A stretch of DNA of 64,000 nucleotides from Candidatus Dojkabacteria bacterium (GCA_035370405.1 DAOOVT010000001.1:485-64484); one strand, 5' to 3'; positions 44,424 to 64,000 are shown, counted from the stretch's first letter. Notes: generated by a model not told the origin, from the letters alone. Translations and numbers: made by a program.

Positions 44424-46427
44424 TTAAATCAAACCATTTGATATCATCCAATCAATCATCGCTCTAGCAATAGCTACTGCATTGTAACTCTGCCCACCAT
44501 CTTCCAAAAATATGGTAAGAACATATTTGGGGTTTTCATATGGGAAAAATGTTGTAACCCAAGCATGTGTATGCTCATACTCTCCATCTTTGTTCAATTT
44601 CCCGAACTCTGCTGTCCCAGTTTTTGCAGCAACTTTAATCCTCATTCCTGCAACACCAGTTATAGTTGCCCTTCCTCCATTAACAGCATTAAACATTCCC
44701 TCTCTTACAACTTGCAAAGCATCAGCACTCACGATATTCTCATCTATATCCTCAAATGACACAAACTCCTCCTCTTTATTTTCATTAACAAAATATTTTG
44801 CCAAATGAGGCCTATGCAATGTTCCACCATTTGCAATAGCTGAAGTCCAATTTGCCATCTGCAATGGTGTTACCAATGTAATACCTTGTCCTATTACAGA
44901 ATTACAAGAGTCTCCTTCTGGATACCATACAGGTTCTAACCAAGGACTCGTTGTATTTGCCAACGCAATTTTATTTGCTGGGGACGGAAGTCTTCCAGGA
45001 GCTTCTCCTGGAAGATCTATACCTGTATATTTCCCTATCCCAAACCTTTCAAGGTACGGAACAAGAGCATTCATATCCCAATGACGAATCAACTCACAAA
45101 AATAAATATTTGAAGAAACAGATAGAGCATCAATCATATTTAAAGCTCCATACGCATGATTCCCATATTCCTGAAATGGTGCCCCACTTGAAAATGTATA
45201 CCCTGCACTACTAACATACACAGTATTTTTTGTTACAACTCCTGCATCCAAAGCTCCTGCTGCAACTATGGTCTTAAACGTAGAACCAGGAGGAACTTGT
45301 GCTGCTATTGCCCTATTAAGAAGAGGATTCTTGGGATCGTTTAACAATGCATCATATTCGCTTTTTGAAATACCTCCTACAAATGGATTGTTATCATATC
45401 CTGGAAACGAAACTAAAGACAAAATTTCTCCATTTGTAACATCTTCGAGTATTCCAGCTCCTCCAATTGCTTTGTAATCACTAATCCCCTCCTCTAAAAG
45501 AGAGTACAACTCTTTCTGTGCATTAATATCTATTGTTAAATACAAATTCTCTCCTGCTACAGGTTCTCTGAGAGTATATGGCTCATCTGACACTGTCTTC
45601 CCTACAGCATTCACCTCCCACGCAACTTGTCCATGTTCACCCAAAAGTTTTTCATCATACTCCCTCTCTATCCCAGTTATACCTATTGTATCAGTTATAT
45701 CTACATAATCCTTCTTCTCAAGATCTTCTGCTGTAACATCTCCCGTGTATCCCAAAACATGAGAGATTACATTCCCCGCAGGATAGTATCTTTTACTCCC
45801 ATCATCTATATACACACCTACTAGTTTATCTAAATTTGCCTTCACTTTTATCGCAGTATCATTATCTATATCTGTAGCTATTAGTATCTCTTGGAAATAT
45901 GGACTTTCTTTATGCACAGAAAGTATCTTTTCCATTATGGAAGAATACTCTGATTTTCCATCACCCTTGTTCTTCTTCCAATTATCTCCAAGTATTTCGG
46001 AAAGGGAATCAACCGTCTTCTGTAATTTTTCAGCCTCTATATATCCATCAGAATCTAAATAGTTTTCAATTAGAATATATACATTCATAGATGACACATT
46101 TTGTGCCAAAGCTATACCATTCCTATCTAAGATTGCACCTCTCAAAGCAGGTTCCGTTTTAATTTTCACCTTATTGGTCAGTGATTTATCAAGCATCTCT
46201 TCTCCTAATGCTACTTGTAGTGTAACTAAATCCTTTATTAAGATACCGAAGATACCTATGAATAGTAGGAACAAGGCAATGTAATTCCATGCTGGATTGA
46301 TATTATCCTCATGATTTTTTTTAACCGAATTGCGTAAATTTACTGCAAAGTATTTCCTACTTATGCGTATTCGAAATTTTTCTTTTTTCTTTTTCGGTTC
46401 AATTTTTTTAGAAATCTTTAAGTCCAT
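44424..46427 (-). CDS. mrdA: Penicillin-binding protein 2 (peptidoglycan D,D-transpeptidase).
   Basis: An N-terminal TM. STFKTI (SxxK), SVSSN (SxN), KTGTAE (KTG). Confidence 0.85.
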   Translation of the reverse strand: MDLKISKKIEPKKKKEKFRIRISRKYFAVNLRNSVKKNHEDNINPAWNYIALFLLFIGIFGILIKDLVTLQVALGEEMLDKSLTNKVKIKTEPALRGAILDRNGIALAQNVSSMNVYILIENYLDSDGYIEAEKLQKTVDSLSEILGDNWKKNKGDGKSEYSSIMEKILSVHKESPYFQEILIATDIDNDTAIKVKANLDKLVGVYIDDGSKRYYPAGNVISHVLGYTGDVTAEDLEKKDYVDITDTIGITGIEREYDEKLLGEHGQVAWEVNAVGKTVSDEPYTLREPVAGENLYLTIDINAQKELYSLLEEGISDYKAIGGAGILEDVTNGEILSLVSFPGYDNNPFVGGISKSEYDALLNDPKNPLLNRAIAAQVPPGSTFKTIVAAGALDAGVVTKNTVYVSSAGYTFSSGAPFQEYGNHAYGALNMIDALSVSSNIYFCELIRHWDMNALVPYLERFGIGKYTGIDLPGEAPGRLPSPANKIALANTTSPWLEPVWYPEGDSCNSVIGQGITLVTPLQMANWTSAIANGGTLHRPHLAKYFVNENKEEEFVSFEDIDENIVSADALQVVREGMFNAVNGGRATITGVAGMRIKVAAKTGTAEFGKLNKDGEYEHTHAWVTTFFPYENPKYVLTIFLEDGGQSYNAVAIARAMIDWMISNGLI

Positions 46428-46430
46428 AGT

Positions 46431-46934
46431 TTATGACAGTTTTATGTTTGATCTATTACCCTCTTTTCTAAATCTACTAGTAAATATTTCACATAGTATA
46501 ATTATTATCAAAGAAATAGCTGAGTACAAGACACAATTTTTTAATTCTGCTGAAGTTACGAGAGTAAACGCTCTATTCAAAAATAACGATGGAAGCATGG
46601 AAAAAAGAATGTAATATACCAGTAGGGTGAAGAATTTGACACCCCAAGAAAGTATTCCCACCTCTGTAGAAAAAAATATCGATACCAAAGAGAAGAATAT
46701 CAAGGCTAATAAGGCTGTTAAAAAATTAGTTCCTAACATGTAATGAGATGTAACATCAATAATGAGACATATTATGAACATCAAAGGAAAAAGAATTTTC
46801 CAATCAACTTTCCTATACAAAAACAAGAAGAAAACAAATGCGATATTTATACCAAGCAAATTAGAAAAAAAACTTTCCAAAAATATGAAGAGAAAAATCC
46901 CAACTATTGTGTATATTAGTTTTAATACAATCAT
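46431..46934 (-). CDS. mreD: Rod shape-determining protein MreD.
   Basis: A 167 aa polytopic membrane protein between mreC and mrdA. Confidence 0.6.
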   Translation of the reverse strand: MIVLKLIYTIVGIFLFIFLESFFSNLLGINIAFVFFLFLYRKVDWKILFPLMFIICLIIDVTSHYMLGTNFLTALLALIFFSLVSIFFSTEVGILSWGVKFFTLLVYYILFSMLPSLFLNRAFTLVTSAELKNCVLYSAISLIIIILCEIFTSRFRKEGNRSNIKLS

Positions 46935-46940
46935 ATTGTT

Positions 46941-47780
46941 CTATATTTCAACAAATACAGTAATTAAATTATCATAATTGATTAATGGATTTACATAACC
47001 AGTTTTTGATGTATTCGCTGGATTGTCAGATAGCCCTACTAGATATCCAAGTACTAGGTAATTTCCAATTTTTTCATCGTTAAGCACAACAACATCTCCC
47101 TCTTTAACATTTGCATCAGCAGACATATTTTCCACTTTGATACCATTGCCTGTCCCTATGACAACTGCTTTGCTTAGAATCGGTGGTTCAGAGGAAATGA
47201 CTGCATTCTCAACACCTGGTTGAGTGATTATTGCTTCAAAATTATTTCCTTTAGACAAGGGTAATTTTACTAGAGATCCAGTTTTATCCGATTTTATAAC
47301 TTGCCCAACATATACATTACCAATACTTACAACATTGTCCTGCTTCACTCCATCATCACTTCCAGCATTTATTTTTATATATTCGGAGTCATTTCTACCA
47401 AGCACTTTACAAGTAACATATTTTTTTGATATATCAGAAAGGTTTAATTGTTTTTTCAAAGAGTCATTCTCTTCCTTTAAGATTAAGTAGTAGGAATTGT
47501 TAATATCTTTTTCATACATATCAATTTTTAAGTTATTGTAATCTTCCATAAATTCACCCATCTTCACAAAATTTTGGAAATACCTCCTTACTCCCGTACC
47601 AATTTCCGCTCCATTATATGCCAAAGGCTCAAATACATATGATATTCCATTTCTAAGAGAGGTTACTAATCCAATACTATCTAGTAGTACAAAAATTATT
47701 CCTGCAAGTATACTCACAGATATATATACATATGTATTGTCAAAAACAGATTGAGTCTTTCTCATTTTCAAACAAAACAC
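46941..47780 (-). CDS. mreC: Rod shape-determining protein MreC.
   Basis: An N-terminal TM, a coiled-coil (LKKQLNLSD), and a beta-rich C-terminus. Position after mreB. Confidence 0.7.
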   Translation of the reverse strand: MFCLKMRKTQSVFDNTYVYISVSILAGIIFVLLDSIGLVTSLRNGISYVFEPLAYNGAEIGTGVRRYFQNFVKMGEFMEDYNNLKIDMYEKDINNSYYLILKEENDSLKKQLNLSDISKKYVTCKVLGRNDSEYIKINAGSDDGVKQDNVVSIGNVYVGQVIKSDKTGSLVKLPLSKGNNFEAIITQPGVENAVISSEPPILSKAVVIGTGNGIKVENMSADANVKEGDVVVLNDEKIGNYLVLGYLVGLSDNPANTSKTGYVNPLINYDNLITVFVEI

Positions 47781-47786
47781 ATTTAA

Positions 47787-48842
47787 TTAAACCAGCTCAT
47801 CCCATGATTTTTGTATTCTTTGGAGTAGATCTATGTGATCGAGCATTAGTGCTGTACCTTTAGCTGTTACAGACATAGGTTCATCAACTATTTTAACTGG
47901 CATATTAAGTTCTTCACTAAGGTATACATCCATTCCTCTTATCAATGCGCCCCCACCAGTAAGATATACACCTGAAGTAAGTAAATCCTTCAGAAGTTCT
48001 GGCGGAGTATCTTCTATGGCATCTTTTACAGATTCTGTTATTATTCCAATGGTATTCATGATTGCTTCTCTTATCTCTATGCTGTTAATTTCAACAGTTT
48101 TGGGTAATCCGGTAAGCAAATCACGTCCTTGCACACCCTGTTTCTTTTCCTTTTTTAGAGGAATAGCTGAACCCATGAGTATTTTAATATCTTCTGAACT
48201 TCTCTCACCTATCAGAACATTGTATTTATTCCTTATGTAATTAACGATATCCTCATCCATTTCATCTCCAGCCACTTTCATTGTTTTGTCAACAACAATA
48301 TCTCCGAGTGAAAATACTGCTATATCCGTAGTCCCTCCCCCTATATCAACAATCATGCTCCCTGAAGCATCTTCAACAGGAAGACCAGCCCCTACTGCAG
48401 CAGCCATAGATTCTTCAACTATGAAAACTTCCCTAGCTCCAGCAGTTTTTACTGCATCTATAACTGCTTGTCTTTCAACTTCGGTAACAGATGATGTTAC
48501 TCCAACAATAACTCTTGGCCTTGGTATCTTAAACCCCTTACTAAAGTATGTGTGAGCTTTCTTTATGAAGTGAGAAATCATTGCCTGTGTTGTATCAAAA
48601 TCTGAGATAACTCCATCTCTAAGAGGTCTTACTGCAACTATATTAGCTGGAGTTCTCCCTATCATCTGACGAGCTTCCTTCCCTACAGCAAGTACCATTT
48701 TTGTCCGCTTATCAACAGCTACAACTGAGGGTTCAGAGACAACAACACCATGATTTCTCATGTACACCATAGTATTGGCAGTACCTAAATCTATTCCAAA
48801 ATCATATGTAACTAATTCCCATAGGGAATCAAGCATACCCAT
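47787..48842 (-). CDS. mreB: Rod shape-determining protein MreB (actin-like ATPase).
   Basis: FGIDLGTANTMVY (phosphate 1), IVDIGGGTTDIAV (phosphate 2). Confidence 0.9.
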   Translation of the reverse strand: MGMLDSLWELVTYDFGIDLGTANTMVYMRNHGVVVSEPSVVAVDKRTKMVLAVGKEARQMIGRTPANIVAVRPLRDGVISDFDTTQAMISHFIKKAHTYFSKGFKIPRPRVIVGVTSSVTEVERQAVIDAVKTAGAREVFIVEESMAAAVGAGLPVEDASGSMIVDIGGGTTDIAVFSLGDIVVDKTMKVAGDEMDEDIVNYIRNKYNVLIGERSSEDIKILMGSAIPLKKEKKQGVQGRDLLTGLPKTVEINSIEIREAIMNTIGIITESVKDAIEDTPPELLKDLLTSGVYLTGGGALIRGMDVYLSEELNMPVKIVDEPMSVTAKGTALMLDHIDLLQRIQKSWDELV

Positions 48843-52076: not shown

Positions 52077-52760
52077 ATGAAAAGAGGAAAAAAATATAAA
52101 AAGATAACACAAGATTTGGATAGAAGTGCTTCATACACACTACAACAAGGAATAAAAAAGATTAAGACCCTCTCCTACTCCAAATTTCCAGGAACACTTG
52201 AATTACACATTGATTTGAAAATACCAAAAGATAAAGATCCAAAATCCTTAAAAGGAGCGGTTTCACTTCCCAATGCTACAAATACTAAAAACATTAAAGT
52301 CGCAGTATTTTGTACTCCTGATAAAGAAGAAGAAGCAAAAAGTGCAGGAGCAGATTTTGTTGGATTAGATAGCTTAATAAAAGAGATAAAAGAAAATGGC
52401 CCTCACTTTGATGTTGCAATTGCAACACCATCTGTTATGCCTAAAATAGCTGTCTTAGGAAAAGAATTAGGTCCAAAAGGCTTAATGCCAAATCCTAAAA
52501 ATGGAACAGTAACAGAAAATATTTCCAAAGCTGTTTCCGAATACAAAAAAGGAAAACAAACATTCGCATGTGATCCATCTGGAGTAGTACATATGGCAGT
52601 AGGATCATTAGACATGGAAGATCAAAAATTAGAAGAAAATATCCATACAGCAATATCAGCAATTTCTGAAGTTGTTGGGAAATCTTATGATCAAATTATA
52701 CAGAGAATGTACATCTGTCCTACAATGGGACCAAGTATAAAGATCAATTATTCCAGATAG
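52077..52760 (+). CDS. rplA: 50S ribosomal protein L1.
   Basis: 227 aa. FPGTLELHIDLKIPKDKD...AVFCTPDKEEEAKSAGADFVG. Confidence 0.9.
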   Translation: MKRGKKYKKITQDLDRSASYTLQQGIKKIKTLSYSKFPGTLELHIDLKIPKDKDPKSLKGAVSLPNATNTKNIKVAVFCTPDKEEEAKSAGADFVGLDSLIKEIKENGPHFDVAIATPSVMPKIAVLGKELGPKGLMPNPKNGTVTENISKAVSEYKKGKQTFACDPSGVVHMAVGSLDMEDQKLEENIHTAISAISEVVGKSYDQIIQRMYICPTMGPSIKINYSR

Positions 52761-52874
52761 CCTTACAACCCTCTTCTACAGCAAACATATCATAGGGAGT
52801 TTACAAGTTTGGCAATACAAACTACAATTATTCTGTCTGCTCTTACAAAACAGAAAAAATGAAAGGAGGCTCAA

Positions 52875-53087
52875 TTGTTAGCTAAAGGAAAGTGGATACT
52901 CATTTATGATAATGGATATAGATATCTAGTATCAATCGCTGGAGATCATTATGAAAGACTAGAAATCATATCAGTAATATCGGAAAACAGTGGTATTGCA
53001 AGAGATGTTAATACTGGAAAGTATTATGAGTACAATAATGAATCTGGTTCTCTCTTTCTCAAAGAATCATTTATCCCATCGGATTAA
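52875..53087 (+). CDS. Small 70-aa hypothetical protein (TTG start) inserted between rplA and rplJ.
   Basis: A perfect Shine-Dalgarno AAAGGAGG at 52862-52869, 5 nt before a TTG start. An ORF of 70 codons. No recognisable family. Confidence 0.4.
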   Translation: MLAKGKWILIYDNGYRYLVSIAGDHYERLEIISVISENSGIARDVNTGKYYEYNNESGSLFLKESFIPSD

Positions 53088-53106
53088 ACTGTTTTGTAGA
53101 GCACTC

Positions 53107-53166
53107 TTAGTGAGTCTAATAAGAAATGTAAATTCATTTTTACTTCTGCCCTATTAGACTCACTAA
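53107..53166 (+). terminator. A 15-bp perfect-stem hairpin (attenuator, terminator, or rplJ-leader structure).
   Basis: TTAGTGAGTCTAATA (53107-53121) pairs with TATTAGACTCACTAA (53152-53166), with a 30-nt loop. A T-rich tract follows. Confidence 0.4.
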
Positions 53167-53204
53167 TAATATTCTGTGTATTTGTTGATTGATATTAAAT
53201 CATC

Positions 53205-53213
53205 TGATATAAT
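53205..53213 (+). promoter_or_regulatory. Extended -10 promoter (TGaTATAAT) upstream of rplJ.
   Basis: TGATATAAT lies 88 nt upstream of the rplJ ATG. An internal L10 promoter at this position is known from E. coli. Confidence 0.45.
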
Positions 53214-53301
53214 GCACGAGACTTACCGAAGAAATAAGGTACAAAAATAAATCCTTACGAGGCAAGTGTATGTTCAACTATAATTATTAACTATAACAAA
53301 T

Positions 53302-53823
53302 ATGGCGAAAAGTCACTTACAAAAGGTTGATTTACTAGATAAATATAAACATATCATTCAGAATAAAAAAGGCTACCTACTAGTCAATTCTGACAAAGTC
53401 AATGCTTCTGATGTTGCAAAATTAAAAATACAACTAAAGGAGGCTAATGCTGACTATGCAGTTTTGAAAAACACAGTCTTTAAAATAGCTCTTCAAGAGA
53501 CTAACCAACCACTGCAAACACAGGAAGTAGATGGACCTACAGCAATCATATATTTTGATGAAGATCCTACTTCTCCAGCGAAATTAATAAAGCAGATTCA
53601 AAAAGAAAAAGGCCTTCTCTCAGCAAAATTTGGTGTATTTGAAAATGAATTCCTTTCAAGTGAAAGAGTTATGGAATTAGCAGATATTCCATCGAGAGAT
53701 GTTCTACTTTCAAGGCTTGCAGGATCTATGAATGCATCATTAACAGGATTTATGAACACAATCACAGGAAATATCAAAGGTCTAACTTTGGTTCTTAAAG
53801 GCATTTCTGAAAAAAGTGCTTAA
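53302..53823 (+). CDS. rplJ: 50S ribosomal protein L10.
   Basis: 173 aa, MAKSHLQKVDLLDKYK...YLLVNSDKVNASDVAKLK. Precedes rplL. Confidence 0.9.
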   Translation: MAKSHLQKVDLLDKYKHIIQNKKGYLLVNSDKVNASDVAKLKIQLKEANADYAVLKNTVFKIALQETNQPLQTQEVDGPTAIIYFDEDPTSPAKLIKQIQKEKGLLSAKFGVFENEFLSSERVMELADIPSRDVLLSRLAGSMNASLTGFMNTITGNIKGLTLVLKGISEKSA

Positions 53824-54412: not shown

Positions 54413-55081
54413 ATGACATATTCCCCATTTACTTCATGGATTCTAGATAATGGTGTCTCTCAACAGACATTAGAACTTCTAGTATCTATAACTGTTGTTG
54501 CAACAATCGTAAGCATATTCAGATACATTTTTGGAGGAAAATCATATGGTATATATTCCCCAATTATTTTAGCAATAGCATACTCATATACTGGTCTTAA
54601 ATATGGACTAGCCATAACTGCCGTTGTCATAATAACAACCCTTGTCTCCTACTCGGTACTGAAAAAGATAAGAATGCATTACATTACAAGAATTGCAATA
54701 AATTACTGCCTTCTAGTAATTGCAATTCTCATGCTCATAATAGCTACCTACAAATATGATTTGGGCTTAAAAAATACATCTATGATATCCCCTCTAGCAC
54801 TTGTATCCATTGCAACTCTTTCTGATTTCTTTGTAAAACAATTTACCCAAAAATCCTTAAAAACTTCATTCTCTCCTCTCATAGGAACAATCGTAATAGC
54901 ATCAATCGGTTGGTACATAATAACTTCTGAGCAAATATCACAGTACATGATTAACAACCTCTGGATAATACCTCTACTCATATTCATAAATATACTCATA
55001 GGACAATTCAAAGAACTTAGAATTAAGGAAATCCTCAGATTTAATTCCATAGTTGGGAACAAGGACAATGCTCAAAAGTAA
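54413..55081 (+). CDS. Seven-transmembrane membrane protein, the membrane partner of an alpha-L-glutamate-ligase-like system.
   Basis: Seven predicted TM helices in 222 aa. The 3' end overlaps the start of the downstream ATP-grasp gene by 29 nt. No transglutaminase-like domain is present. Confidence 0.55.
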   Translation: MTYSPFTSWILDNGVSQQTLELLVSITVVATIVSIFRYIFGGKSYGIYSPIILAIAYSYTGLKYGLAITAVVIITTLVSYSVLKKIRMHYITRIAINYCLLVIAILMLIIATYKYDLGLKNTSMISPLALVSIATLSDFFVKQFTQKSLKTSFSPLIGTIVIASIGWYIITSEQISQYMINNLWIIPLLIFINILIGQFKELRIKEILRFNSIVGNKDNAQK

Positions 55082-56525
55082 AGGTTACAAAGAAATATTA
55101 GGTATCAACAGAAGGAATCAGGAATACATCCGTCCGTATAACTCTGCTAGAGCTAAAAATATTGCAGACAACAAAATTCTTACAAAAAAAATACTAACTG
55201 AAAATGGAATCTTAACACCTAAAATTTACAAAGTTGTAAAAGACAGAAAACAATTAGAATTTTTGAATTGGGATTCACTTCCTAAAAGTTTTGTAATTAA
55301 ACCTAACAAAGGCACAGGAGGCAATGGCATCATTATATTCTACGGGAAGAAAAAAGGACAAACAGCTTGGATAAGACCAAACGGAACTGTAATGTCTAAA
55401 TATGACATCTCCTTACATATTGCAAATATTCTTGATGGAAGATACTCCATGGGAAATAAAAAAGATACAGCAATCATAGAAGAAAGAGTCAAAACAGACC
55501 CTTTTCTTAAGCAATATTCATACAAAGGAGTTCCTGATATAAGGGTAATATGCTTCAAAGGAGTACCCATAATGGCCATGATACGAATTCCAACTAAAAG
55601 ATCAAATGGAACTGCAAATCTACATTCTGGAGCAATATGCACTGGTATAGATATAGCTACAGGAATTACCACATATTCTATGCAAATGGATACAAAAAGT
55701 ATATTTAGTGATGTATATGAAGATATAGAATATACTACAGACCTAGAAGATAATAAAAAGCTCAGTGGTATAACTATTCCTGATTGGAACAAAATACTCG
55801 AAATAGCTCTAAAGTGCCAAAAGGTTACAAAACTTGGATACATTGGAGTAGACATATCAATAGATGCAGAAAAAGGTCCTGTTGTTTTTGAATTAAACGC
55901 TAGACCAGGATTAGGAATACAAGTCGCCAATAAAGCAGGATTAAGATCTAGACTAGAACTAATAAAAGAGGTTGATGTAAAAAGTATCAGACACGGTATA
56001 AAGATTGCAAAAGATCTTTTTGGTGGAGAAATTGAGGAGAGTATAGAATCAATAAGTGGAAGAAAAGTAGTTAATATTATTGAAAAGGTAACATTATTTG
56101 ATAGACAAGCACTTTCTGTCAAAAAGAAAAATAAGAATAATAAACAACCCTCTAAGGTTTTTATGGATACAAGTATTCTCACATCTAGAATTACAGAAGC
56201 AACAGCAAATAGAATTGGTTTCCTTTCAACCACAAAATATTTTAATTCCTTAAACGTTCCTGAAAAATTCAATACACTTAAAGATGCTCAGAAGTATATT
56301 GATGAAAATATTCAAGCACTGACATTAGAAGAAGGAATAAAGAGGATTGCCAAAATTGCAGATGGCAATGATGTGAAGATACGCCCTGTAATAGAAATAT
56401 CTATGGAAATAGCTGAACAGGTTAGATCTCTCGATGTTATAATCGTCCCAGATTTAGAGTATCCTATATCTATGGGAAGAAATGAATTGAAAGGATATTT
56501 AATTGATACCACACATACTTTTTAA
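55053..56525 (+). CDS. Alpha-L-glutamate-ligase-like (RimK-related, TIGR02291-like) ATP-grasp enzyme fused to a C-terminal retropepsin-like (RimB/DUF785-like) domain.
   Basis: The N-terminal half has ILGINRRNQEYIRPYN...FVIKPNKGTGGNGIIIF...YKGVPDIRVICFKGVPIMAMIRIPTKRSNGTANLHSGAICTGID...ELNARPGLGIQVANKAGLRSRLELIKE. This matches my memory of Pseudomonas/Vibrio alpha-L-glutamate ligase-like proteins. The C-terminal approximately 170 aa has VFMDTSILTSRITEA and IRPVIEISMEIAEQVRSLDVIIVPDLEYPISMGRNELKGYLID, matching the retropepsin-like putative zinc protease family. Confidence 0.65.
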   Translation: MGTRTMLKSKGYKEILGINRRNQEYIRPYNSARAKNIADNKILTKKILTENGILTPKIYKVVKDRKQLEFLNWDSLPKSFVIKPNKGTGGNGIIIFYGKKKGQTAWIRPNGTVMSKYDISLHIANILDGRYSMGNKKDTAIIEERVKTDPFLKQYSYKGVPDIRVICFKGVPIMAMIRIPTKRSNGTANLHSGAICTGIDIATGITTYSMQMDTKSIFSDVYEDIEYTTDLEDNKKLSGITIPDWNKILEIALKCQKVTKLGYIGVDISIDAEKGPVVFELNARPGLGIQVANKAGLRSRLELIKEVDVKSIRHGIKIAKDLFGGEIEESIESISGRKVVNIIEKVTLFDRQALSVKKKNKNNKQPSKVFMDTSILTSRITEATANRIGFLSTTKYFNSLNVPEKFNTLKDAQKYIDENIQALTLEEGIKRIAKIADGNDVKIRPVIEISMEIAEQVRSLDVIIVPDLEYPISMGRNELKGYLIDTTHTF

Positions 56526-56527
56526 AT

Positions 56528-57520
56528 ATGAAGAAATATGAGGAATATTTGAAAGAGTGTGGAAATGTACATTTAGCATATTACATTTGGGCTGCTAATA
56601 AACTTGGAATTCACTATGAAGTTTTAGTAAAAGGACTCCTTGCACAATTTAGTGATGGAAATGCAATATGGCATATAATAAATACAGCTACTCCATTAAC
56701 AACAACTACGTCAACAACAATATGTAAGAGGAAGAATTTAACTCATATGGTTCTCGAGAGGAATTGTATCGCTGTCCCAAGACAAAAGACCCTACTCTCT
56801 TCCTCCGATGCTGTGAATTTTTTTAATGAATATAAAGATATAGTTATTAAGCCAACACAACAACTTGGAGGAAAGGGAGTATCTATCCTCCCACAGAGCG
56901 AACAAGAAGCATCTGAGGCTTTCGAAAGAGCATCATTAGCCTCTCATTCAAAAACATCTTCCAAAGTTATTGCAGAGCAATTTGTGCATGGACAAAATTA
57001 CAGATTTCTAGTTCTAGGGGATAGTGTTATAGCAGTAGCAAGAAGAAAATCAGCCCATGTTATAGGTGATGGAAAAAGTAATATCAAACAGCTCATAGAA
57101 CAAACAAACATAATTCGTAAAAATTCTTTGTTAAAGCCTATCATCATAGATGATGAGGTTAATCTAAAGCTAAAAAGAGATTTCCTATCATTGGACACTG
57201 TACCAAAAGCTGGACAAGAAATAATATTAAGATATAACTGCAATTTGACTACAGGAGGAACTACAGAAGAATGCATGAGTGAAGTTGACAATTACTATAA
57301 GGAAGTTGCTATAAACGCAGTTAAAATAGTAGGTGCAGAATTTGGAGGAGTAGACATTATTGCAAAAGACATATCCTCCATCGGAGAATTTGCTGTAAAT
57401 GAAATCAACTACAACCCTGGATTAAGACTCCATTACAAAGTTGATAAAGGTAATATTACTGATGTTGCTGTCCCAATAATGCAGTACATTAGAGATAAAT
57501 ATATAAACTTACCAAAATAG
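56528..57520 (+). CDS. Cyanophycin-synthetase-like ATP-grasp ligase (CphA G-domain homolog; no Mur-ligase domain).
   Basis: IVIKPTQQLGGKGVSI...NYRFLVLGDSVIAVARRKSAHVIGDGKSNIKQLIEQTN...YNCNLTTGGTTEE...GVDIIAKDIS...AVNEINYNPGLRLH. This parallels the CphA ATP-grasp motifs (VVVKP..GNHGRG; YRLLVVG..VAAARR.PA.V.GDG..T...LIE..N; NLSTGG; VEVNAGPGLRMH). Confidence 0.6.
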   Translation: MKKYEEYLKECGNVHLAYYIWAANKLGIHYEVLVKGLLAQFSDGNAIWHIINTATPLTTTTSTTICKRKNLTHMVLERNCIAVPRQKTLLSSSDAVNFFNEYKDIVIKPTQQLGGKGVSILPQSEQEASEAFERASLASHSKTSSKVIAEQFVHGQNYRFLVLGDSVIAVARRKSAHVIGDGKSNIKQLIEQTNIIRKNSLLKPIIIDDEVNLKLKRDFLSLDTVPKAGQEIILRYNCNLTTGGTTEECMSEVDNYYKEVAINAVKIVGAEFGGVDIIAKDISSIGEFAVNEINYNPGLRLHYKVDKGNITDVAVPIMQYIRDKYINLPK

Positions 57521-57527
57521 TACAAAA

Positions 57528-59234
57528 ATGCAAAAAAACACACAAGTACTGCAAGGGTTAAACCTCCTTTCGACAACTTCTCTAGTCACAATAAAAATTC
57601 AAAACAAAGAAAATGTAGAAAAACTACTAAAACAAATAACCTCCTACCACCCAATATTCATAGATAAATACCACTTTGAACAAAATAATCTCTTAATAGA
57701 AACCGCTATCCCATTCGTATGGAGAGAAGCATCAACATATATTCAAAAGCTATCGCAGGGAGAGCTATCATACAAAGATTGTAAGAAGAAAATAGTAGAA
57801 GACATAATAACCCGAAGACTAGCATCTATGTCTACTATTCCTGTTCTCCATTCAGCACACAAACAACAAAAAGAGATAACTCCAACAATAATCTCCGATT
57901 ACAACTCCTCGAAGAATAAGGCTACAGAATCTAAAGGATTTAATAGATATTACACATTAGGCTGTGGTAAGGAATCCCAAGTAATATATTCAATATCCTC
58001 TAGCAAAGATTCAAAAACTGCAAAACAAATACAAAGAGACAAATGGAGCACCAATATGCTAATGGAAAGACTTGGTCTTCCAATACCGAAATGGCAACTA
58101 GTAGGAAGCAAGGCTGATATAGACAAAATCTGGGATAGTTACACAAAACCAGTAGTCATAAAACCTACAGGCCTTGCAGGAGGTAATGGAGTAGTTCTAG
58201 GAATCAAAACAAAAGAACAATGCAAAAAAGCATTTGACTTTGCTCAAAAGGCAACAAATACATTTCCAAGAAGTGCATGGCAGAAAAAAATTATGATACA
58301 AGAACAAGTTCAAGGAGAAGATTACAGACTACTAATAGTCGATGGCAAATTTGAAGTAGGTACAAAAAGAATTCCAGCATTCGTAACTGGTGATGGAAAA
58401 AACAGCATAAAGAAATTAATAGAAGAAGCAAATAAAGATCCAAAAAGAGACCTATCTAACCCATCTCACACACTAAAACCAATAATCATTGACGATCCTC
58501 TACTAGATTATCTAAAACAACAAAAGCTATCTCTCGAAGAAATCCCTCAAAAGGGACAAAAAATACAACTTAGAAAAGTTGCAAGCATGAGTCAAGGAGG
58601 TATCACTGAAGATGTCACAGACCTTGTTGGAGCAGAAATTAGATACATCGCAGAAAGCATAGCTCAATCAATACATGCATTCACTCTGGGTGTAGATGTA
58701 CTTTGCAAAGACATCACTAAACCACTCACAAAGGAAAATGGAGCAATACTCGAGGTAAACACTATGCCAGAAGTATATCTCAACATATTCCCAGTAATAG
58801 GAGAAGAAAAAACAAATGTAATAGACACATATGTAGACAAACTTCTTTCTGGAAATAACACTAAAAGAATTGTAGTTGTAGGGAATCCATCAATAGATAT
58901 CTCTACAATGTTAAAAAGAAAAACATTCATCTGCTCATACTTAAAACAAGATGACGTCGTCGGAGAATATAGAGACAAAGAATTAAGAATAAATGGCCTT
59001 ACAATAAACAAAGAGCTAAAAAAAGAAAAAGCTCTTGAGGCACTAAAAATAAATGCTGCATTAGATGCAATAATACTACATCATAGAAATTGGGAAGAAG
59101 TAGAAGAAACAGGTTTAGGTTTTGAAAAAATAGACCTATTAATAATTACAAAAGATATGAGAAAAGACAAAAGATTTAATCAAATTTTGAGATACAGACT
59201 AAGAGGACTAATTACAAAGATTAAAATTATTTAA
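57528..59234 (+). CDS. Cyanophycin-synthetase-like ATP-grasp ligase with a unique approximately 160 aa N-terminal domain (CphA N+G-domain-like; no Mur-ligase domain).
   Basis: VVIKPTGLAGGNGVVLGI...DYRLLIVDGKFEVGTKRIPAFVTGDGKNSIKKLIEEANKDPKR...ASMSQGGITEDVTDLVGAEIRYIAESIA...GVDVLCKDITKPLTKENGAILEVNTMPEV. This is a strong resemblance to the CphA G-domain, including the DPRRG-like NKDPKRD loop. Confidence 0.65.
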   Translation: MQKNTQVLQGLNLLSTTSLVTIKIQNKENVEKLLKQITSYHPIFIDKYHFEQNNLLIETAIPFVWREASTYIQKLSQGELSYKDCKKKIVEDIITRRLASMSTIPVLHSAHKQQKEITPTIISDYNSSKNKATESKGFNRYYTLGCGKESQVIYSISSSKDSKTAKQIQRDKWSTNMLMERLGLPIPKWQLVGSKADIDKIWDSYTKPVVIKPTGLAGGNGVVLGIKTKEQCKKAFDFAQKATNTFPRSAWQKKIMIQEQVQGEDYRLLIVDGKFEVGTKRIPAFVTGDGKNSIKKLIEEANKDPKRDLSNPSHTLKPIIIDDPLLDYLKQQKLSLEEIPQKGQKIQLRKVASMSQGGITEDVTDLVGAEIRYIAESIAQSIHAFTLGVDVLCKDITKPLTKENGAILEVNTMPEVYLNIFPVIGEEKTNVIDTYVDKLLSGNNTKRIVVVGNPSIDISTMLKRKTFICSYLKQDDVVGEYRDKELRINGLTINKELKKEKALEALKINAALDAIILHHRNWEEVEETGLGFEKIDLLIITKDMRKDKRFNQILRYRLRGLITKIKII

Positions 59235-59269: not shown

Positions 59270-60238
59270 ATGCGATTCTTAATTATTGAAAAAAGACAAA
59301 GGATCAATAATAACAGATTCAAAACAGATATACCAACAGGCTCTGAGAGACTAATAGAGGAACTGAAAAAAAGAAATATAGAATATGATTTCATATACAA
59401 TGATCAGCTAGAATTCATCTTTAAACCATATACTATGAATATCCTTGCAAATGGGAAAGATATTCTGGAATACTCCCATATACTATTCAGAGGACACGCC
59501 CTTCACAATGACAAAGAATACCATTTCAAACGATATATCATAGATTATGTTGACAATTACAATAAAAAAAATACAAATAACAAAATTCTTGTACAAAATG
59601 CAGATGCAATAAAAAAACTCCCATACTATAACAAGATAGCAATGGCACAACTATGCTATGAAAATAATCTCCCCTACTTCACCACATATTATAGACCAGA
59701 TGGAAATTACTCCAATTCACAAAGAAGCATTCTAAATGAATATCCTTTAGTTATAAAGGAATACACAGGAGAGAATAGAATAGAATTAATTGATGGAGTT
59801 GAAAAAATCAAAAAGAATGTCTTCAAGCTTAACAATTTAGATGATTATTCACAACAAGGACTTAAAGATCAAAACCTAGCTAATTTCTTCATTCAAGAAT
59901 TTTCCAATGCAGGAGAAGACTACAGGATATTTGTAAAACTTGGAAAAGTTGTCGCTGGATGGAAAAGAAAAAGCACCAAGAATTTTATAACTGTAAATCA
60001 AGGAGAATATGAAATATACAATGAACCCAATGAAGAAATAAAGACTATTGCAGAAAGAATGAGCAATGTCTTAAACGCTGATTTTGTAGCAGTCGACTTT
60101 ATGTATATAGGAGACAAACCATATATACAAGAGCTTTCCCTACACCCTGGATACAAAGCTTACGAAACAAAAGCAAAGGGAACTCCCATAAATATTGCAG
60201 AACAAATAATATCGGCTTTTAAAGTCCCACCTTTCTAA
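59270..60238 (+). CDS. RimK/LysX/GshB-type ATP-grasp ligase.
   Basis: GEDYRIFVKLGKVVAGWKRKS...VNQGEYEIYN...DFVAVDFMYIGDKPYIQELSLHPGYKAY, the ATP-grasp C-terminal core with an RimK-like DxRxxV...NxxxG layout. Confidence 0.55.
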   Translation: MRFLIIEKRQRINNNRFKTDIPTGSERLIEELKKRNIEYDFIYNDQLEFIFKPYTMNILANGKDILEYSHILFRGHALHNDKEYHFKRYIIDYVDNYNKKNTNNKILVQNADAIKKLPYYNKIAMAQLCYENNLPYFTTYYRPDGNYSNSQRSILNEYPLVIKEYTGENRIELIDGVEKIKKNVFKLNNLDDYSQQGLKDQNLANFFIQEFSNAGEDYRIFVKLGKVVAGWKRKSTKNFITVNQGEYEIYNEPNEEIKTIAERMSNVLNADFVAVDFMYIGDKPYIQELSLHPGYKAYETKAKGTPINIAEQIISAFKVPPF

Positions 60239-61379
60239 ACATACTAAGCCACTGATCTTTTGTAGGAACATTAGATGCTCTTGGAATTAAACCATCTTCT
60301 ACCCATTCACACTGTTTAATAGAAATTTTCCCAGAATAAAGACTATTGTACAATGATGGATTCTTTGCAATACTAGAAGATACTTTTCTAAAACCTCTAA
60401 AATACACTATATCTTTTACATATATTCCAGCTTTTGATGTATCAGAAAGCCCTCTTTTCACCCTATACGCAACATTAAACGCTGACTGCTTCGGAAATAT
60501 TCCATGTAAACAGTTATACAATTCTCTAAACGAAAGATTCCCTCCTACATATATCGCATATGTTAAAGCAACCTTCCTTTTTAAACTACTTTCAGTCAAA
60601 ACATTTACATTACTTTCATTCCACGTAGCAAGTCCCTCTTCTGCATCTAAATAGGCTGGTAAATTTGAGTTACCTAGAGCAGGAAACCCAGTATTTAGAC
60701 CATTAACAGTTCTCAAAACATGTGTTCCGACCTCATGAATTAATGTTTTCTTTAACATAAGAGCATCTCTCTTTATTCCTTCATCAACAAAAATCTCTTT
60801 GCTCTTTATCCCTACTCTAACAGAATTCTTTCGAATATTTGATGATTTTTCTACTTTCCAACCATTCAAATTCAACATCGTAAATATATTTTGAAAAATT
60901 CCCAATATCTCATCATACTCATACAATCTTCTATCCTTTGATTTATCTACCTTTACAAGATTGTAACTTTTGGTATTACCTCTAAGTACTCTACATGAAT
61001 TTCTAAATAGCTTCCCGCTTGGAAATCCGAATCTTTCAATGGAGATATCTGTAATAGCTTCATTATTCCCAACTGAGTTAATAAGATCATTAGCTTGTTT
61101 CTTAGATGATATTAATGATATGTAAAAATCAGAAATTCTTGGATCTACATCTATTATTTCCTCTACAGACAGAAGTTTTCTGAAAATTTCATCATTCCTG
61201 TTTCGAACGGTTTTGTATTTAAAAACAGGATTATATGTATCAGATTCAAAAAATTTCTCTTCCTCCTCTTCCAAATTAATAGGAGTAAGTACAAATGAAG
61301 TAGGAATTCTCAATTGACCAAGAAGTACAGATACTTCATCTAGTTTCATTTGTTTTATACTTTTATTCAATATTTTCAT
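60219..61379 (-). CDS. DUF1704/QEGLA-motif gluzincin metallopeptidase (MATCAP-like carboxypeptidase family).
   Basis: HEVGTH (HExxH), then about 27 residues later AEEGLATW (the QEGLA-type third zinc ligand). 386 aa. Convergent with, and overlapping by 20 nt, the 3' end of the ATP-grasp operon. Confidence 0.6.
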   Translation of the reverse strand: MKILNKSIKQMKLDEVSVLLGQLRIPTSFVLTPINLEEEEEKFFESDTYNPVFKYKTVRNRNDEIFRKLLSVEEIIDVDPRISDFYISLISSKKQANDLINSVGNNEAITDISIERFGFPSGKLFRNSCRVLRGNTKSYNLVKVDKSKDRRLYEYDEILGIFQNIFTMLNLNGWKVEKSSNIRKNSVRVGIKSKEIFVDEGIKRDALMLKKTLIHEVGTHVLRTVNGLNTGFPALGNSNLPAYLDAEEGLATWNESNVNVLTESSLKRKVALTYAIYVGGNLSFRELYNCLHGIFPKQSAFNVAYRVKRGLSDTSKAGIYVKDIVYFRGFRKVSSSIAKNPSLYNSLYSGKISIKQCEWVEDGLIPRASNVPTKDQWLSMFRKVGL

Positions 61380-61395
61380 ATACTATAACTAAACA

Positions 61396-62415
61396 TTATT
61401 TCCTAAAATCACGATTAAAAGTAAATGTTCTTTCTCCTCTGGCTATTAATTCTAAAGCTATCCCTGTTCCCTTTACAACGCAATATATAGGCTCATCAGC
61501 TACATGTGAAGGAACACCTGTTGCTCTGGAAAATAACTTATCTAAATTTCTCAACTCTGATGTTCCGCCACTCATAACCATTCCCCTATCTATTATATCG
61601 GCTGAAAGTTCTGGAGGAGTTTTTTCCAATACATTTCTAATACTTCTAATAATTGATTTAAGTGGAAAATCTATTGCTTTTGCAACATCATTTGAATCAA
61701 CAATTATCGATTTTGGCATACCGGCCCCAACATCTCTTCCTCTCACCTCCATCTGTGCAGGATCTCTAACTTCAACAGCAGACCCTATTTTTATTTTAAT
61801 ATTCTCAGCTGTCTGCTCACCGATCATAATCCCTTTCTTCTTCCTCATATATGAAATTATTGCTTCGTTCAAAGAATCCCCTGCAACACGCAATGACTCA
61901 TACTCAACTATTCCATCAAGTGACATAACTGCAATTTCTGTAGTTCCTCCACCCATATTCACAATCATATTTCCAGAAGATGTATGTATCGGAAGTTGAG
62001 CTCCTAATGCAGCAAGAAGTGGTTCGGGTAGTAATGTTATACTTTTCGCTCCAACAGAGTTTGCCGCTTTTAATACAGCTCTCTCCTCAACAGAAGTAAT
62101 TCCTGCAGGTACACTTATAACCACATCAGGCTTAAAAAATCTAGACTTTCCTAGTGCTTTATCAAAAAAATATCTCAACAAAGCCTCTGTAACCCTAGAA
62201 TCTGCTATTACTCCACTTCTTAGTGGCCTTTTAGCAATAATATTCTCAGGGGTCTTTCCAATCATTTCTTTTGCCTCCTTTCCAACTGCTATTACTGTGT
62301 ATGTATTTACATCAATAGCTACAACAGTAGGTTCAGAGAGCACAATCCCCTCTCCCTGTACAAAAACCACAGAGTTCGCAGTTCCTAAATCTAACCCTAA
62401 CTTCTTTCCAAGCAT
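61396..62415 (-). CDS. Second MreB-like actin-family ATPase paralog.
   Basis: LGLDLGTANSVVFV and IVNMGGGTTEIAV (actin-fold phosphate motifs). 339 aa. Its stop lies 16 nt upstream of the DUF1704 peptidase start. Confidence 0.8.
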   Translation of the reverse strand: MLGKKLGLDLGTANSVVFVQGEGIVLSEPTVVAIDVNTYTVIAVGKEAKEMIGKTPENIIAKRPLRSGVIADSRVTEALLRYFFDKALGKSRFFKPDVVISVPAGITSVEERAVLKAANSVGAKSITLLPEPLLAALGAQLPIHTSSGNMIVNMGGGTTEIAVMSLDGIVEYESLRVAGDSLNEAIISYMRKKKGIMIGEQTAENIKIKIGSAVEVRDPAQMEVRGRDVGAGMPKSIIVDSNDVAKAIDFPLKSIIRSIRNVLEKTPPELSADIIDRGMVMSGGTSELRNLDKLFSRATGVPSHVADEPIYCVVKGTGIALELIARGERTFTFNRDFRK

Positions 62416-62445: not shown

Positions 62446-63477
62446 CTATTCAAAATTCAAAAGCATTGCTTCCTTCATTGCATCAGCAGTCTCTCTAGCA
62501 ATCTTGGAAACTTTAAGACTACTTTCTAAAGCACTATCCAGCAATTCTTGCTTTTTCTTCTCAGCTTCAATTCTTCTCTCCCTTATGGGACTTAATTTTT
62601 GATTCATTACTTCAAACAATCTTTGCTTAACCTCTATGTCTTTAATATTTCCCTCTCTATACCTCCTTTTCATCTCTTCCACTTCATCTTTATCATCATT
62701 AAAAAAGTCATGATACATGAATGCTACATTACCTTCTACTCTACCTGGATCACTTGCATGCACTCTATTTGGGTCCGTGTACACCTTAAAAACCTTTTCC
62801 TTAAGTTCCTCTTCACTATCAGACAAATAGATGCAATTACCAAGACTTTTTCCCATCTTTTCTGCACCATCAATTCCGGGAACATTCACAGATGTCCCTA
62901 GCAATGCTTCTGGGAGATTCAAAACATCTTTCCCATAGGCTGAATTAAACTTCCTAGCTATCTCCCTTGCATCCTCTATCATTGGAAGTTGGTCTTTTCC
63001 AACAGGAACTAAATCAGCATTTACACTTAATATATCAGCAGCTTGATGAACAGGATACAGAAAGAAACCAAGTGGAGTTGAATCAGAAAACCCCTTTTGT
63101 AAAAGTTCTGTTTTAATCGTTGGATTATGTTTAACCTTCTGTACCGTGGTAAAATTTGACAAATATATGAATATCTCATCTATTTGCGGTACTTCACTCT
63201 GAATAAAGACAGAAGTCTTCTCAAAATCTATACCACACGCATAATAATCACACAAAAGTTCATATACGCTCTCCCTTATCTTTTCTGGATTATTTGCATT
63301 GTCTGTAAAAGCTTGAATATTAGCAATTTCTACAAATGTCTCATACTCATCTTGCAACTTAACTCTGTTCTGTATAGAACCAATAAAATGACCAATGTGC
63401 AATTTACCAGTTGGTCTATCTCCTGTCAATATTCTTTTCCTCTTCTGAATTTCTTTCATAGCTAAGTATTTTAACAA
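62446..63477 (-). CDS. trpS: Tryptophan--tRNA ligase.
   Basis: TGDRPTGKLHIGHFIGS (HIGH) and KMGKSLGN (KMSKS). 343 aa. Confidence 0.9.
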   Translation of the reverse strand: MLKYLAMKEIQKRKRILTGDRPTGKLHIGHFIGSIQNRVKLQDEYETFVEIANIQAFTDNANNPEKIRESVYELLCDYYACGIDFEKTSVFIQSEVPQIDEIFIYLSNFTTVQKVKHNPTIKTELLQKGFSDSTPLGFFLYPVHQAADILSVNADLVPVGKDQLPMIEDAREIARKFNSAYGKDVLNLPEALLGTSVNVPGIDGAEKMGKSLGNCIYLSDSEEELKEKVFKVYTDPNRVHASDPGRVEGNVAFMYHDFFNDDKDEVEEMKRRYREGNIKDIEVKQRLFEVMNQKLSPIRERRIEAEKKKQELLDSALESSLKVSKIARETADAMKEAMLLNFE

Positions 63478-63508: not shown

Positions 63509-64000
63509 ATGAAGGAAGTCATCAGAAAAAATCTAGCTATAGTCATGAGAATCTCTATGATAGTTTGTGTTGTACTACTTACCGTGTTTATCTACTACTA
63601 CTCGAAGGGCTATAGGATAAATATACACAATCAGGAAATTACAAAGACAGGGATATTAAACGTAAAGGCAGATCCATTCTGGTCTGACATATATGTTGAT
63701 GGAGAAAATATAGGAAAATCACCTAAGAGCAAGACATTAAGTATAGGCGTACACAATGTTGAGATAAAGAAGGAAGGATACAAAACATGGACCAAACAAG
63801 TAGAGATATTTGATGAAAGATCAACAATAATAGTCCCATGGCTCCTTCTTCAGAAGCCAGAAAAAACAATAAGCTGGGATTCCCAAGGTATTTTTCAAAA
63901 ATCATGGATAGATAAATCTTCTCAAGTTGCCCTTGTTTTGATAAAAGATTCTAATACTACATCTTCACTATGGGCATATAGGACTACGGTTCCATTTTTA
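63509..64000 (+). CDS. Membrane-anchored PEGA-domain protein (partial; runs off the window end).
   Basis: Translation MKEVIRKNLAIVMRISMIVCVVLLTVFIYY (TM), then VKADPFWSDIYVDGENIGKSPKSKTLSIGVHNVEIKKEGYKTW (a PEGA-like beta-sandwich). No stop before 64000. An alternative ATG at 63485. Confidence 0.55.
   Translation, partial: MKEVIRKNLAIVMRISMIVCVVLLTVFIYYYSKGYRINIHNQEITKTGILNVKADPFWSDIYVDGENIGKSPKSKTLSIGVHNVEIKKEGYKTWTKQVEIFDERSTIIVPWLLLQKPEKTISWDSQGIFQKSWIDKSSQVALVLIKDSNTTSSLWAYRTTVPFL

Follow-up and report, generated by a model that had tools for sequence, protein, structure and literature searches.

What would a relative of the eukaryotic tubulin detyrosinase MATCAP act on in a bacterium that has no tubulin? 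The question is raised by a 64-kb stretch of DNA from Candidatus Dojkabacteria (WS6), a lineage of the candidate phyla radiation (CPR, or Patescibacteria); this whole stretch is referred to as the window, and coordinates are window positions unless a locus is named. A predicted zinc carboxypeptidase of the MATCAP/DUF1704 family, 386 residues long, is encoded at 60219-61379 on the minus strand. Its gene follows that of a second MreB paralog, MreB2, after an intergenic gap of only 16 nucleotides (nt; 61380-61395), and its 3′ end overlaps by 20 nt (60219-60238) a convergent gene for a RimK-like ATP-grasp ligase. A sequence-only reading of the locus proposed that the peptidase and the facing ATP-grasp ligases form a C-terminal amino-acid addition and removal cycle, with the MreB paralog or another protein as substrate. 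The open reading frames (ORFs) and coordinates on which it was built are exactly as it gave them, including the 16-nt gap. The analysis retains the cycle and moves away from MreB2: the cytoplasmic MATCAP-family carboxypeptidase probably does the trimming within an expanded, Rlo/Rim-like system of several ligases located at a seven-transmembrane (7TM) protein. The best-supported view of its history is that this system is inherited in Dojkabacteria as a block, together with a module formed by MreB2 and a PEGA-domain membrane protein.

The peptidase ORF encodes a genuine MATCAP/DUF1704 gluzincin. A hidden Markov model (HMM) search places it in the Pfam family PF08014, now named 'MATCAP', with 95.3 bits (cut-off 27; E=5e-27) over profile positions 2-329 of 365, which confirms the proposed family membership. 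Human MATCAP (KIAA0895L; PDB 7z5g, 7z5h, and 7z6s) is recovered by phmmer, with E=1.6e-12 for 7z5g, in an alignment that pairs HEVGTH of the window protein with HEIGTH and EEGLA with EEGLA. The conserved motifs of the window protein are H215-E216-xxx-H220 (H215-E216-VGT-H220), E247-E248-G-L-A, K308-R-G, and Y326. The atypical gluzincin site is complete, with the catalytic glutamate in HExxxH and the downstream glutamate ligand in (Q/E)EGLA. An alignment of 62 diverse homologs shows no variation at eight positions (H215, E216, H220, E248, G249, K308, G310, and Y326). E216 aligns with E281 of human MATCAP, and the E281A substitution renders the human enzyme catalytically dead (PMC10499314). No signal peptide is found in the window protein.

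Structural modeling agrees with this assignment. The AlphaFold2 (AF2) model of the peptidase has a predicted local distance difference test (pLDDT) score of 96 and a predicted template modeling (pTM) score of 0.93, and a Foldseek search of the PDB returns significant matches only to the MATCAP structures 7z5g and 7z6s (E 1.7e-11, TM 0.60-0.70, ~372 columns). Human MATCAP (also TMCP1) and TMCP2 thus share with the window protein the PF08014 domain, the HExxxH and E(E/Q)GLA zinc site, the KRG and tyrosine motifs, and the fold over ~370 residues. The two are nevertheless only 20-21% identical, and the bacterial protein is a single domain of 386 residues, whereas full-length human MATCAP is longer (a 471-residue chain in 7z6s versus 335 residues in 7z5g). 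With 108.1 bits against the QEGLA equivalog model TIGR02421, below its cut-off of 338.65, the window peptidase belongs to a distinct and distant subfamily outside that equivalog. The family assignment itself is not new, because NCBI already labels some orthologs 'tyrosine/phenylalanine carboxypeptidase domain-containing protein'. MATCAP was recognized as a tubulin detyrosinase only in 2022, and a literature search found no paper on bacterial DUF1704 proteins or on DUF1704 with ATP-grasp. Iyer et al. 2009 may already describe a DUF1704-ATP-grasp neighborhood.

The partnership of this peptidase family with ATP-grasp ligases is most directly seen in fusion proteins. An exhaustive HMMER search for the MATCAP family found 1737 clusters, and among them are many proteins of ~780 residues in which Pfam identifies an N-terminal ATPgrasp_ST domain, a linker, and a C-terminal MATCAP domain; P0304, P0311, P0315, and P0336 exemplify the order ATPgrasp_ST-(retropepsin-like)-MATCAP. 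The ATP-grasp family in these fusions is the same as that of the window ligase at 55053-56525, and the fusion genes come after a gene for a PKD-7TM_transglut protein. When metagenomes were scanned with the fusion proteins as seeds, 80 ATPgrasp_ST loci emerged, which were annotated by ORF and HMM. A 7TM gene lies directly upstream of ATPgrasp_ST in 71 of them, the remaining nine having no upstream DNA. MATCAP is fused to ATPgrasp_ST in 17 and is a separate adjacent gene in two, and additional CphA-like or RimK-like ligases are present in ~20 of the 80. Within Dojkabacteria, the four ligase genes and the 7TM gene all lie downstream of MATCAP in 46-48 of the 49 loci with sufficient sequence. Two further loci have no MreB nearby: L087, where MATCAP sits among ligases, and L089, where MATCAP and a ligase form a single protein.

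The CPR fusions (P0311/OGH83633-type and L089) share with the window the same three modules and the 7TM partner, which is encoded by the upstream PKD-7TM_transglut gene. They differ in that all modules reside in one polypeptide, the retropepsin motif is lost, MreB2 is not adjacent, and additional CphA-like or RimK-like ligases are as a rule missing. The Dojkabacteria block can be described as a 'split' version of the CPR fusion architecture.

A comparable pairing is found in Proteobacteria. The S. meliloti pSymB locus (L092, 4815-8616) and a Shinella plasmid locus (L093, 4884-8628) carry the same three-gene operon of N-formylglutamate amidohydrolase (FGase), QEGLA, and a glutathione-synthase (GshB)-like ATP-grasp protein. 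In Photobacterium, the QEGLA and GshB genes have consecutive locus tags (RS17025 and RS17020), and QEGLA shows 27-fold induction at low salinity (PMC10308900). The proteobacterial QEGLA (TIGR02421) operons resemble the window in placing a DUF1704/MATCAP-domain gene beside an ATP-grasp ligase gene. They differ in the ligase family and in having neither a 7TM protein nor MreB nearby, and their QEGLA proteins (those of L092 and L093 in the Alphaproteobacteria) are ~620 residues long with an additional N-terminal region. Because fusions and neighborhoods recur in three or more distantly related lineages, MATCAP and ATP-grasp ligases are very likely linked in function. The fusions and the conserved neighborhoods in CPR and Proteobacteria tie the peptidase to the ligases, and for this reason the addition/removal cycle of the sequence-only reading stands as a sound inference; MreB2 as its substrate is unsupported.

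The facing operon begins with a gene for an RloB-like 7TM membrane protein of 222 residues (54413-55081, plus strand). It matches PF14402 at 67 bits and the RloB model NF052267 at 54 bits against a cut-off of 900, a match confined to the 7TM part of the window protein, which consists of the 7TM_transglut module only, without a transglutaminase or PKD ectodomain. The 3′ end of this gene overlaps the start of the gene for the RloC-like ATPgrasp_ST ligase (55053-56525, plus strand). That ligase matches PF14397 at 239.6 bits (ATPgrasp_ST, residues 20-305) and the RloC-type model TIGR02291 at 298.7 bits, below the cut-off of 314.2, and it continues into a predicted RimB/RloA-like retropepsin domain at its C-terminus (~55953-56522). 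Two ligases resembling the G domain of cyanophycin synthetase (CphA) follow on the same strand: one of 330 residues (56528-57520; NF010623 219 bits, PF08443 48 bits), which also resembles the ATP-grasp part of GshAB, and one of 568 residues without the Mur-ligase (M) domain (57528-59234; NF010623 245 bits, profile positions 185-573). Both fall below the NF010623 cut-off of 877 and align over the ATP-grasp (G) region only. The last is the RimK-like ligase of 322 residues (59270-60238, plus strand), with 36.8 bits for PF08443 and 50.7 bits for TIGR00768, below a cut-off of 143.

The sequence-only reading placed these ligases in the RimK and tubulin-tyrosine-ligase (TTL) superfamily. Four ATP-grasp genes, a RimK-like one included, do face the peptidase, along with 7TM_transglut, but the TTL part of the description is not supported: none of the four window ligases matches the TTL family PF03133 in Pfam at E<0.01, and the only match to it is a sub-threshold 19.1 bits in the fusion protein P0304. 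By profile, the window ligases are RimK-, CphA-G-domain-, and RloC-like and fall outside the TTL family. Where several ATP-grasp ligases are linked, they typically extend peptides, storage polymers, or polymers of the envelope residue by residue (PMC4431377).

The C-terminal extension of the ligase at 55053-56525, ~190 residues long, supplies a second line of evidence for a trimming function. The window copy of this extension gives no Pfam match when searched alone; orthologs and a profile indicate a retropepsin domain. Its orthologs match PF05618 in 7 of 15 cases (best E 1.6e-7) and also match other aspartyl-protease families, and a profile of the domain finds PDB 9g58/9g59, a 'putative ATP-dependent zinc protease domain', at E 0.004. 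The catalytic triplet DTG is kept by nearly all Dojkabacteria copies (61 of 64) and by nearly all non-fusion metagenomic ATPgrasp_ST proteins (57 of 59). Among the aligned MATCAP fusions, 9 of 10 no longer have it, and DPS, DLK, NTT, and others take its place. Loss of DTG thus coincides with fusion to MATCAP, a complementarity that suggests a shared function for the retropepsin and MATCAP. In the window copy the triplet is DTS (~56166-56174); the retropepsin may therefore be impaired in this genome, in which case trimming would fall mainly to the MATCAP-like enzyme.

A model of the system can be drawn from these components. Going by what is established for RimK, TTL, and the CphA G domain, the ligases would convert a C-terminal carboxylate to an acyl-phosphate and then attach amino acids sequentially. 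The product would be a peptide tail or a poly-amino-acid chain, built on an acceptor that the 7TM protein keeps at the membrane. The MATCAP-like enzyme would then remove C-terminal residues and so limit, edit, or recycle the ligase product, a role assigned by analogy with RimB for RimK and RloA for RloBC. The product would serve the cell envelope, and co-transcription with MreB2, itself paired with a PEGA membrane protein, would reflect shared expression or positioning rather than modification of MreB2.

A close known counterpart is RloABC of Pseudomonas aeruginosa, which likewise combines a 7TM_transglut protein, an ATPgrasp_ST/TIGR02291-type ligase, and a retropepsin peptidase (bioRxiv 10.1101/2025.03.18.643919). 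In P. aeruginosa, the ligase and the peptidase are antagonistic and the system has envelope and cell-shape phenotypes: loss of the RloA retropepsins leads to hypo-osmotic lethality, antibiotic sensitivity, and cell-shape defects, and deletion of rloB or rloC rescues the protease-null mutant (bioRxiv 10.1101/2025.03.18.643919). Because either deletion rescues retropepsin loss, the Rlo ligase product is harmful unless trimmed. The window block differs from RloABC in that its predicted retropepsin is fused to a cytoplasmic ligase instead of being secreted and its 7TM protein lacks the transglutaminase-like ectodomain; it adds three ATP-grasp ligases, a MATCAP-like carboxypeptidase, and the link to an MreB paralog. 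By analogy with this system, the Dojkabacteria block probably serves the cell envelope.

Other ligase-peptidase pairs offer partial parallels. In RimK-RimB, which carries out polyglutamylation of S6 and its trimming, an ATP-grasp ligase extends a protein C-terminus and a dedicated peptidase removes the extension, and a RimK-like gene is present in the block. The window RimK-like protein, however, scores far below the RimK cut-off, the window peptidase is a metallo-carboxypeptidase, and no candidate substrate with an acidic C-terminal tail, as RimK- or TTL-style substrates have, occurs among the scanned window ORFs. Cyanophycin synthetase and cyanophycinase follow a similar logic of a polymer with a dedicated peptidase, and two window ligases are nearest to the CphA G domain, which extends a peptide C-terminus; these ligases have no M domain and reach only 219-245 bits against ~877, and there is no cyanophycinase gene. 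In eukaryotes, an ATP-grasp ligase, TTL or TTLL, likewise works against MATCAP. The tubulin tyrosination/detyrosination cycle (TTL with MATCAP/VASH) nevertheless differs from the window system in its ligases, those of the window being RloC-, CphA-G-, and RimK-like and outside PF03133, and in that MreB2 does not have a conserved acidic tail.

The recurrent association with ATP-grasp ligases, together with the substitution of MATCAP for the retropepsin in systems of the Rlo/Rim type, offers a concrete function for bacterial MATCAP homologs, as the C-terminal trimming partner of a peptide ligase. It also suggests a bacterial precedent, in the form of a two-enzyme module, for the ligase and MATCAP that act on tubulin in eukaryotes. 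The results that generalize beyond this genome are the MATCAP-ATPgrasp_ST fusions, the complementarity of retropepsin and MATCAP, and the pairing of PEGA with MreB2.

Several observations weigh against a trimming role in an envelope-directed ligase system. In this window, the peptidase lies outside the ligase operon and converges on its 3′ end. A homolog 40% identical to the window protein (L086) has neither ligases nor MreB nearby, and in the archaeal-type contexts L091 and P0256 MATCAP homologs stand alone without ligases. In L084, MATCAP is beside MreB2 and the nearest ligases are 7 kb away, which favors a link specific to MreB2. The envelope role is drawn from the neighboring genes and the Pseudomonas phenotypes only. 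To our knowledge, no function has been established for any bacterial MATCAP-family member, and we know of no biochemistry on bacterial DUF1704 proteins. As an observation in its own right, the L086 homolog has ftsQ-ftsA-ftsZ 2.7 kb downstream of it, in the same orientation (L086 3962-10334).

The neighbor that prompted the cytoskeletal proposal is MreB2 (61396-62415, minus strand), a protein of 339 residues with the tail ...GERTFTFNRDFRK. It passes the cut-offs of both MreB models (NF010539 431.3 bits versus 293; TIGR00904 421.4 versus 365.75) and is 41% identical to MreB1 (47787-48842). Its gene lies between trpS and the peptidase gene, outside the canonical mreBCD/PBP2 context. MreB2 orthologs are 83-91% identical and all 339 residues long, whereas the adjacent peptidase is ~60% identical.

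Conservation of this arrangement was counted by tblastn over 80 species-representative Dojkabacteria loci, seeded on a close-clade alignment and leaving out 19 weaker relatives. MreB2 is upstream of MATCAP on the same strand in all 72 loci with at least 1.1 kb of upstream DNA. The two genes are directly adjacent in 68, and a single gene is inserted in the other four, all deep branches; in L080 the inserted gene encodes a Wzy_C/O-antigen-ligase-like membrane protein. The neighbors TrpRS (38/68) and rplL (34/44) are less well conserved, and transposases or other DNA have entered the interval separating the peptidase from the RimK-like gene, whereas the MreB2-peptidase junction is free of them. 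Even the deeper lineages L084 and L088, whose MATCAP is ~39% identical, retain MreB2 followed by MATCAP. Adjacency of the MreB paralog and the peptidase in related genomes, on which the sequence-only reading depended together with gluzincin family membership, is therefore borne out, and neither of the findings that it named as refutations was obtained.

What this adjacency implies is more limited. The MreBs adjoining MATCAP are all orthologs of MreB2, with 65-73% identity to it as against 42-43% to MreB1, and the adjacency is thus a single vertically inherited event. Among the 80 metagenomic ATPgrasp_ST loci, an MreB lies within 10 kb in four, and in only 1 of the 19 that have MATCAP, which is about chance level. 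Phylogenetic co-occurrence, which the sequence-only reading had put forward as a check, accordingly divides: the MreB2-MATCAP pair is kept in Dojkabacteria and in the deeper lineages L084 and L088, but elsewhere MreB near MATCAP is at the chance level.

The C-terminus of MreB2 bears more directly on its candidacy as a substrate, which had been expected to show in a conserved end with acidic or aromatic residues. It ends in FRR in 119 of the 120 closest orthologs. This apparent invariance was an artefact of sampling the 120 closest matches and was set aside once the species-level set proved varied. Across the class, MreB2 ends in FRR in 38 of 81 cases and in SIT in 15, followed by GYN, ISS, MLE, ANG, and others; FRR or FRK endings are confined to the close clade, and upstream of the end only G-E/D-R-x-F-S/T is conserved class-wide. 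A scheme in which removal of RR would expose a tubulin-like -EF or -DF end was dropped because the endings vary. The tail is short and basic or neutral, unlike the acidic tails of tubulin or S6, contrary to the expectation. The AF2 model of MreB2 (pLDDT 66, tail <50) is too weak to judge whether the tail is exposed.

These data allow the alternatives to be weighed. If the MreB2 tail were the substrate, extended by the ligases and cut back by the MATCAP-like enzyme, the locus would encode an actin-like analog of tubulin tyrosination/detyrosination. Such a prokaryotic 'cytoskeleton code' would tune MreB2 filament behavior or its coupling to the PEGA membrane partner, and would give a bacterial cytoskeletal protein its first enzymatic cycle of tail modification. 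The 16-nt junction without a terminator-like site, an adjacency tighter than that of TrpRS or rplL, and the persistence of the pair in L084 and L088 even with the ligases moved away are all compatible with it, as are the unusual constraint on MreB2, the near-invariant tail within the close clade, and a low-confidence tail prediction that, in a weak model, fits a flexible and exposed tail. Yet the extreme C-terminus is neither conserved class-wide nor acidic, the adjacency traces to one inherited event, and outside the clade MreB occurs near MATCAP at chance. The L089 lineage and L087, moreover, associate MATCAP with ligases in the absence of MreB, and L119 and L162 have PEGA and MreB beside the ligase module without MATCAP. 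MreB2 stays a conceivable substrate because ATP-grasp ligases require only a carboxylate; the tail data remove the positive evidence that the hypothesis predicted, and modification of MreB2 is unlikely.

A second possibility is the editing of peptidoglycan precursors, in which the ligases would extend cytoplasmic precursors in the style of Ddl or D-Asp ligases, the MATCAP-like enzyme would trim stem peptides, and MreB2 and PEGA would direct insertion. ATP-grasp ligases have an established place in peptidoglycan synthesis (PMC4431377), an MreB paralog and envelope genes accompany the cluster, and the beta-lactam sensitivity and shape defects of Rlo mutants (bioRxiv 10.1101/2025.03.18.643919) would fit. 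However, no window ligase reaches the cut-off of any Ddl model (best 27-38 bits versus at least 243), mur, ddl, and fem genes are absent from the block, and its invariant partner is a 7TM_transglut protein, a class for which we know of no role in peptidoglycan precursor synthesis; this account is improbable. The remaining alternative denies any coupling and treats the enzyme as a housekeeping carboxypeptidase caught in frozen ancestral synteny of a slowly rearranging lineage. It gains from the housekeeping neighbors TrpRS and rplL/rplJ, which are also often conserved around the block, and from the lone homologs in the unrelated contexts L086, L091, and P0256. The independent MATCAP-ATPgrasp_ST fusions, the ATP-grasp neighbors in Alphaproteobacteria and Vibrionaceae, and the reciprocal decay of the retropepsin motif are hard to reconcile with it; frozen synteny is therefore strongly disfavored and very improbable as an explanation.

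Under the favored reading, in which the carboxypeptidase trims the product of the ligase system, the relation of MreB2 to the block is better described through its other neighbor. A PEGA-domain single-pass membrane protein (Pfam PEGA 48 bits) is encoded at 63512-64000 on the plus strand, divergent from trpS-mreB2, and only its 5′ part is present before the gene runs off the window end. The same divergent arrangement of PEGA and (trpS-)mreB2 occurs at 69 Dojkabacteria loci and at L084. L119 and L162, two of the four metagenomic loci with an MreB within 10 kb, come from CPR bacteria other than Dojkabacteria; they have no MATCAP and carry PEGA on the minus strand beside MreB on the plus strand, followed by a TagA/WecG glycosyltransferase gene and after it the 7TM and ATPgrasp_ST genes. 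The MreB2 partner that recurs beyond the Dojkabacteria clade is the PEGA protein, and PEGA|MreB, which looks like a conserved two-gene unit, goes with the entire ligase module. The link of the peptidase-ligase system to the highly conserved MreB2 and to PEGA in a CPR lineage points to an uncharacterized envelope or morphogenesis machinery in bacteria with tiny genomes. A literature search returned nothing relevant on PEGA with MreB or on Dojkabacteria with MreB. The PEGA proteins are ~430-530 residues long and have a beta-propeller-like C-terminal part (L001 6358-7881, L119 119-1402, L162 2586-3839).

In deep-branching Dojkabacteria, the block itself contains additional genes (L080 8656-9912, 12142-14360, and 16037-17014; also L075, L076, L079, and L083). 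Besides the Wzy_C/O-antigen-ligase-like gene between MreB2 and MATCAP, there are genes among the ligases for a GT4 glycosyltransferase and for two hydrolases, one of alpha/beta type and one AAT/C45-like. Together they hint at a cell-surface polymer function.

The peptidase is likely co-transcribed with MreB2 and with trpS, the first gene of the probable trpS-mreB2-matcap transcript. The tryptophanyl-tRNA synthetase (TrpRS) gene is at 62446-63477 on the minus strand (TIGR00233 265 bits), with a gap of 30 nt between it and the downstream mreB2. No terminator-like hairpin is found in 59.8-63.8 kb, and a promoter scan gives matches no better than in shuffled sequence. The argument for co-transcription is consequently one of gap sizes, since the scan is uninformative and terminators were not found; of the co-transcription of peptidase and MreB paralog asserted earlier, the 16-nt spacing and the lack of a terminator-like site hold, but promoter evidence does not add to them.

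The canonical mreB1-mreC-mreD-PBP2 operon (44424-48842, minus strand) lies outside the system and serves as a comparator. Its separate position at 44.4-48.8 kb had been noted correctly: MreB1 (NF010539 457 bits), MreC (Pfam 51 bits), and PBP2 (transpeptidase and dimerization domains) are identified by HMM. The ORF in the MreD position (46431-46934, minus strand) encodes a very hydrophobic protein of 167 residues that has no Pfam match and is labeled mreD from position and size only.

Two further observations concern the flanking genes. The TrpRS upstream of MreB2 is of two types, ~68-92% and ~40-46% identical to the window TrpRS, and other loci have no TrpRS there (L008, L010, L012, L019, L036, L040, L042, L049, and L065 are the loci for this two-type variation); this suggests in-situ replacement of the TrpRS gene. 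Between rplA and rplJ, ~540 nt (52760-53302) contain no listed ORF of at least 80 residues and could hold the usual L10 leader region.

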